NCBI GenBank assembly: GCA_019056805.1
Contig: DXJG01000002.1
Span: 480,515 to 544,514, forward strand
Direction: 5' to 3'
Origin: Candidatus Baldrarchaeota archaeon
GTDB lineage: Archaea > Asgardarchaeota > Baldrarchaeia > Baldrarchaeales > DXJG01
Length of the DNA: 64,000 bases
Part shown: positions 1,624-10,554 of the stretch, one piece after another
Position numbering within the stretch: the first letter of the stretch is position 1
How the letters are laid out: each line of letters starts with the position of its first letter
Translations under genes and position numbers: made by a program
Notes under the pieces: generated by a model
Seen by the model: only the letters and a program-made list of their open reading frames with translations
Told to the model about the DNA's origin: nothing
The model's database searches: none

Positions 1624-3759
1624 TTGCAGAGGTTGAAATCACAACGAATTCTAATAGTATCAGAGAAATATAAACAGGCTTTAGCCATTGCGAAAGCTCT
1701 TGGTAAGGTCAAGAGAGAAACACTTAACAATGTGCCAATTCTTTTTGTAAATGCTAACAATTCTAACATCGTTATTGTTCCTCTCCGCGGACATATTACA
1801 GAATATACAACTAAACCAGAATATGAAAAATGGTCGAAAACCGATCCAAAACTCATATTACTAGACAAGAATGCCTTAGAAAGGGTATATAAAGAAATAA
1901 AATACATTAAAGCCTTAAAAACGTTGGCAAAACAATGTGATGAACTAATATTTGCAACAGATGCTGACGAAGAGGGAGAAAATATCGCTTTAGAAGCGTG
2001 GGAAATTATTAGACAAGTAAATCCAAATCTTAAACCAAAACGACTCTGGCTACATACTCTAGTTCCAAGAGACATTCGAGAAGCTTTTAAAAACCTTATT
2101 GAGCCTAAATGGACTTGGGCATATGCAGTTGAAGCTAGAAGACAAATAGATGCTTTAATAGGCTTTGCCGCTACACGTGAACTTACACTAGCATTAAAAC
2201 CATTTCTGAAACAAATAGGAACTAACATTATCAGCGTTGGACGGGTCCAAACACCTACACTCTACCTTATATATGATAGAGAAAGAAAAATTAAAAATTT
2301 TATACCTGAACTTTACTGGAATCTATTAGCAGAAATAAATATCCATGGAGAAATTATTAAAGCAAAGCATGTGAAGTCTCCTTCAAAAGATAAAAACACG
2401 ATTTTTACCATTTATAATAAGATTAGAGGAGAAAAATTTGCAACACTAAAGGATATTAAGAGAAATGAAATCTATATCCAACCTCCAACACCATTTAACA
2501 CTACAGAAGCCCTAAAAACAATAACAAAAATACTTCCAATAACAGCTAAAACAGCCATGAGAATATTAGAAGACCTTTACTTAGACGCTTTAATAAGTTA
2601 TCCAAGAACCGACACTGACAAGTATTCTCCTTCTTTTCCTCATAGAGAAACTATTGCAAAATTTTTGAAAAGCAGAATATATCGTATGTATGCTGAAGAA
2701 ATTATGGAAAGAGGAGTTTTTAAACCTAGACAGGGCAGAGTGTTTAAAGGGGATCATGACCCTATCACCCCGATAGATGTAGCTGAACCTAATGATCGAA
2801 GATTTAGAACACAAAACCACTGGAAAGTATATGATATAGTTGTCAGAAGATATCTCGCGCTCTTCATGCCACCCGCAAAAGAACTTGGAATAAAACTGCT
2901 ATTTTTAATTAATGAAGAACAATTTAAAGCTGAAATAACCACTCTTCTTGAAGAAGGGTTCATGAAAGTTTGGCCATGGATGAAAAAAGAATACACCTTA
3001 ATACCGAAATTACCAAGACTTGGAGTTACACAAATTTATCCAATTAAAAAAATTTATACTGAAGAAAAAAAGACAAAACCGCCACCAAGACTTACCGAGA
3101 GTAATTTAATAGCTATGATGCAAAAATTTAACTTAGGAACAAAATCAACTAGACCACAACACATAGAAACCAATAAAAAACGAGGTTACATTATCAAAAA
3201 GGGAAGAAGTATATTTTGCTCCGACCTTGGATGGACTCTAGCTTCCAATTTAGAAAAAATTTGGCCAGAATTTGTTCTACCAAAATTCACCGCTAAGATT
3301 GAAGAAATGCTTCAAAAAATAATGGACGGATCAACCGATTGGATTAATGTTGTAGAAAATATAAGAAAAGAATTTTTAGACATGTTTGACAAGCTTAGAG
3401 AACGAAAACCAAAAATAGTTGGAGAAATCGAGAAAATCGTTGATAAAATGATGCAAGAAGGCATAACTTCTGAAACTTATGCTAAATGTTTAAAATGCGG
3501 AGGATCAATGATTTTAAGAAAGGGAAAAACTGGCAAACGATATATAAAATGCACCAATTGCGGTGAAACCCGCCCCTTACCTCAACGAGGATCTATTAGA
3601 ATACTTAAAACAAAAATTTGCCCAATATGTGGAAACAACGTTCTATCAATTTCTATTAGAAACTTTTCATATAAATTATGTCCAGTTTGTTGGATATCTA
3701 CGGGTATATGTGCAAAATGTACCTATAATGCTTGTAACATAAATAAAAAACAAAAATAA
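1624..3759 (+). CDS. DNA topoisomerase IA (Topo III/TopA type) with C-terminal C4 zinc ribbons
   Basis: TOPRIM motifs ILIVSEKYKQALAIAKALG and IFATDADEEGENIALE are present, together with the topo IA signatures GRVQTPTL and ISYPRTDTD. Three to four CxxC pairs lie in the last about 100 aa. At 711 aa with no helicase domain, this is not reverse gyrase. Confidence 0.85.
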   Translation: MQRLKSQRILIVSEKYKQALAIAKALGKVKRETLNNVPILFVNANNSNIVIVPLRGHITEYTTKPEYEKWSKTDPKLILLDKNALERVYKEIKYIKALKTLAKQCDELIFATDADEEGENIALEAWEIIRQVNPNLKPKRLWLHTLVPRDIREAFKNLIEPKWTWAYAVEARRQIDALIGFAATRELTLALKPFLKQIGTNIISVGRVQTPTLYLIYDRERKIKNFIPELYWNLLAEINIHGEIIKAKHVKSPSKDKNTIFTIYNKIRGEKFATLKDIKRNEIYIQPPTPFNTTEALKTITKILPITAKTAMRILEDLYLDALISYPRTDTDKYSPSFPHRETIAKFLKSRIYRMYAEEIMERGVFKPRQGRVFKGDHDPITPIDVAEPNDRRFRTQNHWKVYDIVVRRYLALFMPPAKELGIKLLFLINEEQFKAEITTLLEEGFMKVWPWMKKEYTLIPKLPRLGVTQIYPIKKIYTEEKKTKPPPRLTESNLIAMMQKFNLGTKSTRPQHIETNKKRGYIIKKGRSIFCSDLGWTLASNLEKIWPEFVLPKFTAKIEEMLQKIMDGSTDWINVVENIRKEFLDMFDKLRERKPKIVGEIEKIVDKMMQEGITSETYAKCLKCGGSMILRKGKTGKRYIKCTNCGETRPLPQRGSIRILKTKICPICGNNVLSISIRNFSYKLCPVCWISTGICAKCTYNACNINKKQK

Positions 3760-3777
3760 AAACAATTTAAGCCAAAT

Positions 3778-4410
3778 TCAAAGTTTTTCCATAACCTTTT
3801 TTACAAGTTCTCTCACAGCTTTTCTCCCGCCTAAAAACAAAGCTAATTCTGCAAGTCTTTCTACATGTCTTTCTAAGACAGGCATTATTATATCTTTTGA
3901 TTGAGTATCTAAGCTTGTTACGAGGTCTATTAATTCGCTTAAGGTATCAAAAACGCTTCTAAACATGTCATAAACATACATAGGAGCGTCTGAAACTCTT
4001 CTCTTCGCAATTAGATTCCCAACATTATAGTAAACTTCTTTAACAACAATTTCAGGAGAAGCACCATTTCCAAGTTTGTTGAGACCGTTCTTTAGGATTT
4101 CCTCTACGGTATTTTGCATTTGCCAAATCTGTTCATTGCTTTTACTTTTGCTCTCAAAAAATACCGCTAACGCATAGTGTTCAACTTCTTTTGTTTTTCC
4201 AAAGAAAATACATGCTATCATACCTAAATCTGGAAAAAGAGTTTGTACACAACCTTCAGCTTCGCTCAAATCTTTTGCACCACTGCTTACCCAAACATCC
4301 AAAGCCATATTCCAAAGTTTCTCTCGAGGGATAAATCCCTCGGGAAACATAGCCTCCGCTATAGGTCCCAGTTTATAATCAAACTTAATAAGAAGTACAC
4401 CTTTGAGCAT
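3778..4410 (-). CDS. longin-like domain protein (family member 1 of 3 in window)
   Basis: The N-terminus MLKGVLLIKFDYKLGPIAEAMFPEGF fits a profilin/longin-like alpha-beta pattern, followed by a helical C-terminal half. It lies 18 nt downstream of the KaiC-like gene on the same strand. It is a paralog of 6189-6839 and 8613-9089. Confidence 0.55.
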   Translation of the reverse strand: MLKGVLLIKFDYKLGPIAEAMFPEGFIPREKLWNMALDVWVSSGAKDLSEAEGCVQTLFPDLGMIACIFFGKTKEVEHYALAVFFESKSKSNEQIWQMQNTVEEILKNGLNKLGNGASPEIVVKEVYYNVGNLIAKRRVSDAPMYVYDMFRSVFDTLSELIDLVTSLDTQSKDIIMPVLERHVERLAELALFLGGRKAVRELVKKVMEKL

Positions 4411-4428
4411 TTATAAGCCACACACCAA

Positions 4429-5835
4429 TTATTCTATCGGAACGAGACGAGTTTCAATATAACCTTTCTCAGTGCTTACGGTCATAACATACATTTCGGT
4501 CCTAGGTATAAGTCCGTAAATTACAGTAGTTCCTTCAATATTTTCCAACTTAAAGTGGGTAGTAGCCATATGGCAAAGCGTTCTAATAAGTTTCTGACCA
4601 TATTTTACTATAGCTAGAACCAAAAGATTTCTAGTCCTTGAAAGTATAGACAACTGACTCAGAAACTTGTAAACAGTTTGAGGATCATATATATGTTCCA
4701 CCGTATCCACACCAATAATAAAAGCCAAGTCCCTGCTACCAACTTTTTCTCTTAATTCATTTACTGCTTTCGAAGCTATTTGATGTGCTTTAGCAACATC
4801 TCCTCTCGGTATTTTTAAAATATAGGGCTTTTCAGCTTCTGCTTCTTCAACCTCTAAAATCCTAACGCACGCATTAAATTTTTCTTCTCCAACAAAGGGA
4901 ATAATCCACTTTTCTAACTCTTCGACAGGTTCTCCTTCACATGGAATAATCATCACTGGTATATTATGTTGGACAAGATTTGCCACAAGAGGGGCTACAA
5001 GCCAAAGATAGTATGGTCCTACTTCTTCTCCGATTTCTAAGAGGTTAAAGCTTCCTCTTCTATAACCTCCAGCCGTTAAATTGTTTAAATCTTCCACTCC
5101 CGTTGAAATTCTCTCCTTACTCGTGATTAAAGGCGGACTGACAACTTTCTCAGGGAAGTAAATTGGTTCATCTCTGAAGTGCGTAAATCTTCCATCTTTT
5201 AAAGTAAAAAGAAATGTAGGTTTCTTAATTTCTTCCCCCCTTATTTTCTCAAATATAATTTTTCTAATAAGTCTCCCTTGGATAATTTCACGAGTTAAAG
5301 TTACGATCCCATCGACTAGATAATCTATAGTTAACGCTTCATATCTTTCTACAACAAATATCACATTAGAATTGGTAGATTCTCCCAATTCTAATAAAGC
5401 TCTTTCTATTCTTAAATTTTCTAATGGAATATCCAAATTAGTTTTTAATGCGTCTAAACTATCGATCACGATTGTAACTGGTCGCTTTTTTGAACTCTCA
5501 ATTTTAGCATATAAAGCTCTTAAGAAATCAGGCTCGTCTGAATATTCAAAAAGTATATATTCTGGAGCTGACACAGGAATCTGGGGTTTTCTAGCATCTA
5601 AAATGTTTTCTTCGGGAATACTATCTTTAATCCAAGGAAACTGCCTTAAAAGTTTCTTGCTTGACACACGTGTAGAAACATAATAGCTTGTTCCATTTAT
5701 TCCCATCTTCTTAATTAATTCCAAAGCTAAAGTTGTTTTTCCCGTACCAGCTAAGCCTTTTATTAATAGAGAAAAACCACCCTTGTTTAAAGCACTAATC
5801 AGTTCTTTTGGCACACCAAAAGAAACACTAACCAT
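4429..5835 (-). CDS. KaiC-like double RecA-fold ATPase (second domain degenerate)
   Basis: The N-terminal Walker A is GLAGTGKTT within MVSVSFGVPKELISALNKGGFSLLIKGLAGTGKTTLALEL, and a Walker B-like IVIDSLD follows. The second RecA-like half (…GGYRRGSFNLLEIGEEVG…) lacks an intact P-loop. Confidence 0.75.
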   Translation of the reverse strand: MVSVSFGVPKELISALNKGGFSLLIKGLAGTGKTTLALELIKKMGINGTSYYVSTRVSSKKLLRQFPWIKDSIPEENILDARKPQIPVSAPEYILFEYSDEPDFLRALYAKIESSKKRPVTIVIDSLDALKTNLDIPLENLRIERALLELGESTNSNVIFVVERYEALTIDYLVDGIVTLTREIIQGRLIRKIIFEKIRGEEIKKPTFLFTLKDGRFTHFRDEPIYFPEKVVSPPLITSKERISTGVEDLNNLTAGGYRRGSFNLLEIGEEVGPYYLWLVAPLVANLVQHNIPVMIIPCEGEPVEELEKWIIPFVGEEKFNACVRILEVEEAEAEKPYILKIPRGDVAKAHQIASKAVNELREKVGSRDLAFIIGVDTVEHIYDPQTVYKFLSQLSILSRTRNLLVLAIVKYGQKLIRTLCHMATTHFKLENIEGTTVIYGLIPRTEMYVMTVSTEKGYIETRLVPIE

Positions 5836-6188
5836 AGATAGTCACCCTTATTCTTGGAAATAAACCGTTTAATTATTTTTTCTTTTAGTTTTATAAAGTC
5901 TTAAATATTTATTGTATTGATAGATTTTAAATTTTCGGTATTTACACCTAACTTCGTAATTTAGACCGTTTAAAGACGAATGACGACTTAAAAACCAGAT
6001 AACCTTCAATGTTTACAAATAATATAATTTCACTTAGCTGGGATTTTAAAAAAGCTAATTCTTCCTTTACAAAGTGTTAGAGGCTTATAGTAAAATTAAT
6101 ATTGGGTTGAAATTAAATGTAGTATCATGTATAATAACATTGTACTTAAAAATCGAGGGGGTTCAAAAGACGTCGTGAGGGAGCTTTC

Positions 6189-6839
6189 GTGTTAAAAGGA
6201 GTCTTACTAGTTCGATTCGATTCAAAACTTGGACCAATACCAGAAGGAATGTTTCCACAAGACTTCATAGACAGAAATAAGATTCCAGAGATAACCATGC
6301 AAATCTGGGCTAATCTTCCTAAAGCTGGTGGCAACGGCTACACCCTAGTTAACTTCAACAAAATAAATTTGTTTGGTTTTCTTCTTTACGATGAAGATGG
6401 CAATCTAGGACCGTACTGTATAGCAAGTTTTTTTGATTCTGATGCTGTGGCCGAAATATGGGGGAGATTTGAAGATATTAAAAAACTAATGGAAATTATA
6501 AATAACAAAATTAAAGAAAAACTACCTGTTCAGGTCGCGTTACAGGAACTCTATGAAAATATCATGAAGATTATTACAAGGCCTATCATAAGTGGAGTTT
6601 TAAAAGACAATGTTTATTCTACTTTTAAAGAGGTTTTTGAAAACTTAGCTTATTTAATATCAACTATAAAAAACATAAAAGATGAAGATATTAAGAAAAA
6701 AATGATCGAGAAAGTAAAAAACTTGTCCGAAAACCTGTTAACATTATCAATATTATGGGGTGGAAGAGAAATAGCAACTCTTCTAATAAAACGGTTATTG
6801 TCATCAACTACTACTCCTAAGGAAAAACTAAAATTTTAA
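6189..6839 (+). CDS. longin-like domain protein (family member 2)
   Basis: A GTG start follows GAGGGAG. The N-terminus MLKGVLLVRFDSKLGPIPEGMFPQDF is near-identical to that of 3778-4410. It is divergently oriented from the KaiC operon. Confidence 0.55.
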   Translation: MLKGVLLVRFDSKLGPIPEGMFPQDFIDRNKIPEITMQIWANLPKAGGNGYTLVNFNKINLFGFLLYDEDGNLGPYCIASFFDSDAVAEIWGRFEDIKKLMEIINNKIKEKLPVQVALQELYENIMKIITRPIISGVLKDNVYSTFKEVFENLAYLISTIKNIKDEDIKKKMIEKVKNLSENLLTLSILWGGREIATLLIKRLLSSTTTPKEKLKF

Positions 6840-8612: not shown

Positions 8613-9089
8613 ATGATACCTGTTTCGTTTCATAATGATGTGAAGGGATATGTTATGAAAATCAAAGGAAATTATAACAGCAAACTAAAGGGCATTGTTT
8701 TAGGACGTTTATTACCAACCTTACCAAGTCCGCATTTCATATATCCTAACGATTTTTTAAATACTAAAGAGCTCAGGTACGTTATTATGCAGGCATGGTT
8801 AAACTATGGTAGCACAACATGGACGGATAAACCTGAATTTGTATTTGTACACTATAACTGGCTTAAAATGATAGGATGCGCATACTTTGATAAATCAAAT
8901 CATCTTGGAGAATATACACTTATTTGCATGTTTGATGAAAATGAAGGCGTAAAAGTTTGGAAGTATCTTCCGAAAATTAAAGAGTTCTTGGAAAAGGCTA
9001 GCCAAAAAATACGACACGAACAGAACATGGTCACAATAATAAAAAACTTATACAGGGAACTTTCAGAGAAAATATCACAATTAGAATAA
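8613..9089 (+). CDS. longin-like domain protein (family member 3); true start probably ATG at 8655
   Basis: LKGIVLGRLLPTLPSPHFIYPNDF...W..G...IGCAYFDK...YTLICMFDE...W aligns position-by-position with LKGVLLIKFDYKLGPIAEAMFPEGF...W..G...IACIFFGK...YALAVFFES...W of 3778-4410. It lies immediately upstream of the TrmB-GTPase pair. Confidence 0.45.
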   Translation: MIPVSFHNDVKGYVMKIKGNYNSKLKGIVLGRLLPTLPSPHFIYPNDFLNTKELRYVIMQAWLNYGSTTWTDKPEFVFVHYNWLKMIGCAYFDKSNHLGEYTLICMFDENEGVKVWKYLPKIKEFLEKASQKIRHEQNMVTIIKNLYRELSEKISQLE

Positions 9090-9223
9090 TTTTATTAAAT
9101 GATAAAGCGGTAAGTAAAGTATATTTTAGATTGCTAGTTTTGACAAAACGTTTTCATGTAGTAACATTTATTATTACCATTGTACTAATTTATAGATATA
9201 CTCTATTACAAATAATATGTGGG

Positions 9224-10042
9224 ATGCTAAAATTGCCGTTGCAAGACCTTATTGAAACACTGGAACGATTAGGATTCACAAAAAATGAAGCAAAAGTATA
9301 CTTAACATTAGTTATGACAAGAAATCCCCTCAATGCATCAGAAATTAGCAGGAGATCAGGCGTACCAAGAGCAAACGTCTACGAAACCTTAAATAAACTA
9401 GTGGGGAGAGGATTCGTTTTAAGAGAAGCTGCAGGAAGAGGAGCAAGATACGTAGCAGCATCACCCGACCAGATATTCGAAGCTCTCAGAGAAGAACATA
9501 AAAGATATATTCAACTGGTTGAAGAAGCAAGAAAAACATTTGACCAGCTTATGTCAAAAGTTACAAGACCGTTTCCAGGAGAAGCAGCATGGCTTGTAAG
9601 CGGAGAAACCAGAATCGACAACATTCTTAAAGATATTTTAGATACTGCCACACAAAGATTTACATCCTTAATGACACCCGATATAATTACAAGAAACGGA
9701 GAAGGAATCTTTTCAATGCTGAAGAGGAAGGCAGAGGATGGCGTTGAAATTCTCATTTCACTTAAAATTACAAGTGATATTCTTGATAAAGTTAAGGAAT
9801 TAGCAAATTCCGTGTCAGTTTTTCATTGGCAACTTGGAGAAATCCCCATGGGATGCTACGTTAGTGACGGTTCCCGTTGCTTAATGACCCTCGTCGGAAA
9901 ATGGGCTCCAATATTAACATACGACATAGGTATTTGGACCGAAAACCCGGTCTACGCAAAGTCCTTCGAATATTTAACTGAAAAACTTTTAACATTAAAT
10001 GTACCCTTTAAGAAATATCTTGAGGAGGAAGAAAAGGATTGA
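9224..10042 (+). CDS. TrmB-family winged-HTH transcriptional regulator (start at MLKLPLQDL; ORF track gives 9131)
   Basis: LGFTKNEAKVYLTLVMTRNPLNASEISRRSGVPRANVYETLNKLVGRGFV is a TrmB-type HTH. A TATA-like tttataga element sits about 30 bp upstream of 9224. The C-terminal block GCYVSDGSRCLMTLVGKWAPI is shared with the paralog at 28333. The stop overlaps the GTPase start (ATGA). Confidence 0.7.
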   Translation: MLKLPLQDLIETLERLGFTKNEAKVYLTLVMTRNPLNASEISRRSGVPRANVYETLNKLVGRGFVLREAAGRGARYVAASPDQIFEALREEHKRYIQLVEEARKTFDQLMSKVTRPFPGEAAWLVSGETRIDNILKDILDTATQRFTSLMTPDIITRNGEGIFSMLKRKAEDGVEILISLKITSDILDKVKELANSVSVFHWQLGEIPMGCYVSDGSRCLMTLVGKWAPILTYDIGIWTENPVYAKSFEYLTEKLLTLNVPFKKYLEEEEKD

Positions 10043-10554
10043 GTGGAGAGTACATCCTAAAAGTTGTTGTAGTAGGAGACTTAGCTGTAGGAAAAACAAG
10101 TTTAGTCATTAGATACGCAGAAAACAAGTTTCCAACAAGTTACAAACCGACAATAGGAGCAGACATAATGGTTAAAATGGTGGATCTCAAAGGAAAGAAA
10201 ATTAGACTTGCGATCTGGGATATAGCTGGACATGAAACTTTCCAGAAGATAAGGCGTTACTATTATCAAGGAGCTGCAGGCGCGCTAATACTTTATGATG
10301 TAACAAATCCAGAATCATTTGAACACGTAAAAGATTGGTACGATGATGTAGTCACTCATTGCGGAAAAATACCCATTGTCCTAATTGGAAATAAAATAGA
10401 TTTGAAAGATCAAAGAAAAATAACAACAGAACAAGGTGTGAAAAAAGCTGATGATATGGGTCTAGTAAAATTCATCGAAACAAGTGCAAAAACCGGTACA
10501 AATGTACACAACGCCTTTGTATCAATAATAGAAGAAGTGCTAAAAATATCATAA
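10039..10554 (+). CDS. Ras/Rab-like small GTPase (switch II Gln replaced by His)
   Basis: G1 is GDLAVGKTS, switch I is PTIGAD, G3 is WDIAGHE, G4 is GNKID and G5 is ETSAKTG. There is no C-terminal prenylation Cys. Confidence 0.8.
   Translation: MSGEYILKVVVVGDLAVGKTSLVIRYAENKFPTSYKPTIGADIMVKMVDLKGKKIRLAIWDIAGHETFQKIRRYYYQGAAGALILYDVTNPESFEHVKDWYDDVVTHCGKIPIVLIGNKIDLKDQRKITTEQGVKKADDMGLVKFIETSAKTGTNVHNAFVSIIEEVLKIS

Follow-up and report, generated by a model that had tools for sequence, protein, structure and literature searches.

The analysed window (the whole 64-kb stretch of DNA), part of a Baldrarchaeia (Asgard archaeon) genome, encodes three paralogous proteins that are given the working name famX here and designated copies a, b and c. 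They are most likely longin proteins of the FLCN/NPRL2/C9orf72 type ('GP-motif' longins) and members of a family restricted to Asgard archaea. One copy directly follows the gene of a GvpD-like ATPase that belongs to the KaiC superfamily. We propose, with moderate confidence, that famX proteins work in pairs as longin-fold regulators of a Rab-like GTPase and that in some lineages they have a KaiC-superfamily ATP-binding partner.

The famX paralogues and their longin domain

famX-a: 3778-4410, minus strand; 210 amino acids, from the open reading frame
famX-a longin domain: residues 1-116, about 4063-4410, minus strand; carries FDYKLGP
famX-a C-terminal four-helix region: about 3781-4056, minus strand
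famX-b: 6189-6839, plus strand, divergent; 216 amino acids, GTG start, architecture as in famX-a, FDSKLGP; orthologues P0008 and P0133
famX-c: 8655-9089 (the frame opens also at 8613), plus strand; 144 amino acids, longin domain only, from alignment and orthologues

In BLASTP comparisons famX-a and famX-b share 29% identity over 211 residues (E 2e-28), famX-b and famX-c share 25% identity (E 3e-17), and famX-a matches famX-c at E 2e-10; by these scores the paralogy of the three copies is far above chance. The N-terminal sequences of the famX-a/famX-b pair are MLKGVLLIKFDYKLGPIAEAMFPEGF and MLKGVLLVRFDSKLGPIPEGMFPQDF. The ATG at 8655 is taken as the start of famX-c because its orthologues are 143-144 residues long. 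An HMM scan of the 64-kb window detected no fourth copy, and the family is small, with 25 representatives in 1.84 billion proteins. The gene sizes, the 18-nt gap, the divergent spacer (353 bp) and the N-terminal motif described in the initial annotation all agree with the open reading frames and the sequence, and the third copy that it placed beside a TrmB-GTPase gene pair is present at 8613/8655-9089 on the plus strand, upstream of TrmB.

The AF2 model of famX has the topology ββ-α-βββ-αα. This corresponds to a five-stranded antiparallel sheet in the longin order β1-β2-α1-β3-β4-β5-α2-α3, lacking the N-terminal helix whose absence separates longin from roadblock domains. The C-terminal part is modelled as four short helices and is missing from famX-c. 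The closest structural relatives of famX are all GTPase regulators, with FLCN, Lst4 and NPRL2 being alike in structure, and Foldseek gave the same top match (E 2.8e-5). A full-length profile searched against the PDB drew mostly designed helical bundles owing to the famX C-terminal helices, and a profile of the N-terminal domain was used for this reason; its only natural match in the whole PDB, a marginal one, is human NPRL2 residues 8-75 (E 0.0047).

Longins of the FLCN, NPRL2, SMCR8 and C9orf72 class are defined by a Gly-Pro at the end of the β1-β2 loop or the start of β2, a motif missing from the FNIP2, NPRL3, TRAPP and DENND longins (PMC12290439). The AF2 model of famX places G15-P16 where strand 2 begins; of 27 members, at least 90% retain G15 and only a few have another residue instead of P16. 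The spacing F10-D11-x3-G15-P16 is the same as that of C9orf72 W33-D34-x3-G38-P39. In the alignment the motif of famX-c is degenerate (LLPTL-PSP), with the Gly lost. The longin-like fold proposed in the initial annotation is therefore borne out by structure prediction, and is sharpened by the GP motif, its spacing and the marginal NPRL2 match to the FLCN/NPRL2/SMCR8/C9orf72 class.

It is extremely improbable that famX-a and famX-b are SNARE-like longins of the Sec22/Ykt6/VAMP7 type, with the C-terminal helices forming a fusion coiled coil. Matches of that type score far under the FLCN/NPRL-type longins, the predicted helices are four short ones rather than one long SNARE helix, neither a SNARE/synaptobrevin Pfam match nor a membrane anchor was found, and famX-c has no helical part.

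The three paralogues and the 27 famX members match no Pfam, NCBIfam or PADLOC family, so that famX does not coincide with a known archaeal enzyme family; such a coincidence the initial annotation had named as refuting its reading. The lone hint in the family scans is to Afi1 (E 0.045, two members), and DENN, Folliculin and NPR2 Pfam models give no match to famX even at E up to 10. A C-terminal DENN or NPRL2-specific domain is likewise absent, its place being taken by the four short helices.

The GvpD-like ATPase and its junction with famX-a

ATPase: 4429-5835, minus strand; 468 amino acids, GvpD-like, two RecA/KaiC-superfamily domains
ATPase N-domain: about 5161-5835, minus strand; Walker A and Walker B
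ATPase C-domain: about 4432-5118, minus strand; degenerate P-loop
ATPase/famX-a spacer: 4411-4428, minus strand; 18 nt, TTGGTGTGTGGCTTATAA, includes GGTG, from the sequence
T-rich tract: 3741-3777, minus strand; directly 3' of the famX-a stop, ...TTGTTTTTATTTTTGTTTTTTATTT, from the sequence
Divergent intergenic region: 5836-6188, no strand; 353 bp, 27.8% GC, two blocks conserved separately, one by each gene

The N-domain of the ATPase carries both a Walker A motif (GLAGTGKTT) and a Walker B motif (VIDS). The C-domain has EIGEEVGP at the P-loop position with no Lys-Thr/Ser, which is true of all 30 aligned homologues. The initial description, in which one RecA domain is intact and the other degenerate, is thereby confirmed. 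Among Pfam models it is not KaiC that the ATPase matches best but GvpD_P-loop (50.0 bits; Pfam cut-off 24) and GvpD_bR2 (34.1 bits; cut-off 27.9), the best stretch of the latter covering only the first 73 of 254 model positions. In HMMER alignments to KaiC 8zn5 and SSO2452, R56-V57 lie opposite the catalytic Glu-Glu of KaiC, and at least 90% of family members keep Arg56. The family ranges over Asgard archaea, Methanolobus, Syntrophoarchaeum and Thermoplasmata.

The ATPase thus resembles GvpD, the haloarchaeal gas-vesicle regulator (PF07088, PF20440), in scoring above both cut-offs and in having the same P-loop N-domain. It differs in that its family is spread over the lineages just named and that gvp genes are absent both from the window region and from every neighbourhood examined, which does not fit a functional GvpD. 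GvpD binds the activator GvpE and lowers the GvpE level, a precedent for the control of a partner protein.

The initial annotation regarded the protein as a KaiC-type phospho-timer; read in this way, it would be an autophosphorylating clock whose state the longin proteins read out. By sequence and fold the ATPase does fall in the KaiC superfamily, and the Arg-finger-like residues K197 and R199 of the KaiC 'LKLRG' motif are conserved. Two hallmarks of KaiC, a functional Walker A motif in each domain and the catalytic Glu-Glu, are both absent, however. The window ATPase is set apart from KaiC and the KaiC-like ATPases SSO2452, PH0284 and ArlH/FlaH by its Arg-Val and by a second domain, equivalent to the CII autokinase domain, that lacks a P-loop in every family member. 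Superposition on full-length KaiC extends over only 254 residues, and no KaiA or KaiB Pfam family is listed among the neighbours at the Baldrarchaeia loci. With Arg-Val replacing the Glu pair and no P-loop in the C-domain, the idea of a KaiC phospho-timer is unsupported and very unlikely.

The ATG of famX-a stands exactly 18 nt past the ATPase stop, and similarly tight gaps of 13-19 nt are found in the Baldrarchaeia loci L001-L005. As the spacer includes GGTG, it resembles an operon junction, and from the sequence the ATPase and famX-a look co-transcribed. The T-rich tract behind famX-a is likely to be the end of this transcript, as an archaeal oligo-T terminator. A scan for stem-loop terminators found none, such a scan being uninformative for an archaeon. 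On the other side of the ATPase, the spacer to famX-b has a GC content of 27.8% versus 33-35% in the adjoining 2-kb segments; its conserved blocks were identified by alignment with three Baldrarchaeia loci. It shares no word of at least 10 nt with the region upstream of famX-c.

Gene neighbourhoods of famX across Asgard lineages

The ATPase/famX-a junction is kept in Baldrarchaeia, where famX-a identity is 63-84%. Synteny between these contigs extends beyond 15 kb and takes in topoisomerase, HIT, UppP, TrmB and GTPase genes, so that the contigs on their own prove little about a coupling of the ATPase to famX. In Jord/Freyarchaeia a famX pair is immediately preceded by the gene of another, different KaiC-like ATPase with two domains (PF06745 at 9e-62; BLAST E of only 0.002 versus the window ATPase), and no GTPase was found on those contigs. 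Njordarchaeota have an operon of the order small GTPase, famX, famX in L027, L028 and L030 (60-73% identity among famX copies), and the flanks of L028 are unlike those of the other two. A fourth locus, L031 (37% identity), holds a tandem famX pair, with the contig ending too near upstream to show a GTPase. No ATPase lies beside famX in the Njord and Odin lineages, and the Odin-lineage famX genes have neither a GTPase nor an ATPase adjacent to them. The KaiC-like neighbour, whose conservation the initial annotation had made a test of its proposal, is hence kept across the syntenic Baldrarchaeia and represented by a different ATPase in Jord/Freyarchaeia, and is absent beside famX in Njord and Odin.

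Two famX members occur together in the Baldr, Jord/Frey and Njord lineages; those of Njord belong to two old paralogue clades with a fixed gene order. A crude NJ tree groups all the ATPase-adjacent copies in a single clade. In a Baldrarchaeial paralogue of the ATPase (L006, 46% identity), a small GTPase 15 nt downstream occupies the slot of famX-a, and a second GTPase lies upstream. Other members of the ATPase family, in Frey L007, Loki L008, Methanolobus, Thermoplasmata and others, have no famX or GTPase neighbours. A genome scan with the ATPase alignment, driven by a generic P-loop pattern, hit mainly non-Asgard loci, and none of the matches listed has famX or GTPase neighbours.

That the ATPase and famX-a genes are neighbours could reflect nothing more than inherited gene order without functional coupling, in which case famX may still regulate GTPases alone. 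The synteny of all Baldrarchaeia loci and the unrelated neighbours of ATPase orthologues elsewhere would fit this explanation. We consider it unlikely given that the 18-nt same-strand junction is too short for a promoter and that a KaiC-like ATPase stands independently beside famX in Jord/Freyarchaeia; by a rough, uncomputed estimate, the chance of a KaiC-family gene lying immediately upstream of a given gene is well under 1% per lineage.

A further explanation is that famX proteins act as adaptors or outputs within signalling hubs of KaiC-superfamily ATPases and are unrelated to small GTPases, with the longin domain as a general protein-binding platform. The presence of two unrelated KaiC-superfamily ATPases directly upstream in two Asgard classes, the grouping of the ATPase-adjacent copies in one clade and the GTPase-free Jord/Frey contigs all favour it. 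It is nevertheless somewhat unlikely, since the Njordarchaeota operon joins famX to a GTPase without any ATPase, the nearest structural relatives all regulate GTPases, and the L006 ATPase paralogue is itself flanked by GTPases.

The small GTPase, the arginine finger and comparison with known longin systems

TrmB-family transcription regulator: 9224-10042 (the frame opens at 9131), plus strand; Pfam TrmB 3e-22, gene calls L001 and L005
Ras/Rab-like small GTPase: 10039-10554, plus strand; 171 amino acids, Pfam Ras 8.5e-60, alignment

A TrmB start at the Met at about 9224 is favoured because the orthologues have 269 residues. The TrmB and GTPase genes overlap by 4 nt. The GTPase contains the G1-G5 motifs (GDLAVGKTS, WDIAGHE, GNKIDL and ETSAK), with a His in place of Ras Gln61 (WDIAGHE). 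It is one of three small GTPases in the 64-kb window, and Asgard genomes are rich in such proteins; its nearness to famX-c, from which about 134 nt and the TrmB gene separate it, is weak evidence of a connection.

The arginine finger of FLCN (R164), NPRL2 (R78) and SMCR8 (R147) has no counterpart in famX. The alignment reveals no conserved Arg or Lys in the β4-β5 loop of any subfamily; the NPRL2 R78-equivalent is His in famX-a, Pro in famX-b, Glu in famX-c and variable elsewhere, the last few (three) residues of the alignment in this region being a manual extension. FLCN-type GAP activity is therefore unlikely. NPRL2-like and FLCN/SMCR8-type longins have already been described in Asgard archaea, some of the NPRL2-like ones fused to prokaryotic signalling domains (Liu et al. 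preprint 10.1101/2020.10.19.343400; PMC12290439). Those published longins retain the Arg finger (PMC12290439), and famX, without it, differs from that set. A genuine catalytic GAP role for famX, of the FLCN/NPRL2/SMCR8 type and with an arginine finger entering the active site of the GTPase, is suggested by the GP motif, by the structural likeness to FLCN, Lst4 and NPRL2, and by the His replacing the catalytic Gln of the neighbouring GTPase, which could make that enzyme dependent on a GAP. The missing Arg at or near the R78-equivalent loop and the contrast with the published Asgard longins render this quite unlikely.

In the proposed paired-regulator mechanism, two different famX members would associate through their longin domains, as in FLCN-FNIP, NPRL2-NPRL3 and C9orf72-SMCR8, and provide a platform for binding and regulating their cognate Rab/Ras-like GTPase. 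The cognate GTPase would most likely be the one at 10039-10554, presumably co-transcribed with TrmB downstream of famX-c, and the pair would not be an arginine-finger GAP but would serve as a scaffold, a GEF or a GAP of non-canonical type. The famX-a protein of Baldrarchaeia would be made together with the GvpD-like ATPase, which may bind ATP in its N-domain while lacking the canonical catalytic glutamates and having a dead C-domain. We propose that the ATPase might bind famX-a, or copies a and b as a pair, depending on its nucleotide and thereby gate the longin-GTPase switch, much as GvpD and KaiC-like proteins control their partner proteins. Fold, motif, paralogy and the recurring gene order are observations; that the longins pair, bind a GTPase and contact the ATPase, and in which direction control would run, belongs to the proposal.

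Compared with the eukaryotic longin pairs NPRL2-NPRL3 (GATOR1), FLCN-FNIP (Lst7-Lst4) and C9orf72-SMCR8, famX lacks a conserved arginine finger and a DENN/NPRL2 C-terminal domain, having four helices or, in famX-c, nothing. The GTPases linked to it score as Ras/Rab-like and not as Rag or Arf, and its KaiC-superfamily partner has no eukaryotic counterpart. A heterodimer of paralogous longins is suggested for famX at the gene level, by paired paralogues in three Asgard classes. Identity between famX and the solved Lokiarchaeal longin 8yqg is only 12%. In the bacterial MglA-MglB operon, a Ras-like GTPase is encoded together with its regulator, a dimer from the roadblock/longin superfamily (PMC10933270), and the Njordarchaeota GTPase-famX-famX operon follows the same logic. 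The initial annotation called the pairing of such an ATPase with longin-like proteins uncharacterised, and no literature match was found that joins KaiC, longin and Asgard, or GvpD with Asgard.

Asgard genomes encode dozens of small GTPases and longin/roadblock proteins, and which regulator serves which GTPase is mostly unclear because such genes in the cultured Lokiarchaeon generally lie outside operons (PMC10933270). famX is an exception, with one conserved Njordarchaeota operon containing a GTPase and two famX genes, and with ties to KaiC-superfamily ATP-binding proteins in Baldrarchaeia and Jord/Freyarchaeia. The concrete sets that result, GTPase plus two longins and ATPase plus longin, bear on whether finger-less GP-motif longins act as GAPs, GEFs or scaffolds, on eukaryote-like heterodimerisation, and on a prokaryotic ATPase input into a eukaryote-like GTPase switch. 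famX also adds a longin family undetected by current domain libraries. A bolder, doubtful extension is an Asgard-specific circuit in which a prokaryote-type KaiC/GvpD ATP-binding ring would sense energy or nutrient state and gate a FLCN/GATOR1-like longin heterodimer that regulates a Rab-like GTPase; the TrmB sugar-type factor would be the output. If true, this ATPase-longin-GTPase circuit would predate eukaryotes and be related to their nutrient sensing by Rag, GATOR1 and folliculin, but include a partner that eukaryotes later lost.

Several neighbouring proteins of unknown family were also compared with famX. Those at L006 (unk194, unk260), L010 (unk163) and L014 (unk267) were rejected as kin by hhalign. 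Weak Pfam matches among the unknown neighbours are to Fuz_longin_1 (0.045) and sigma-adaptin (0.03).

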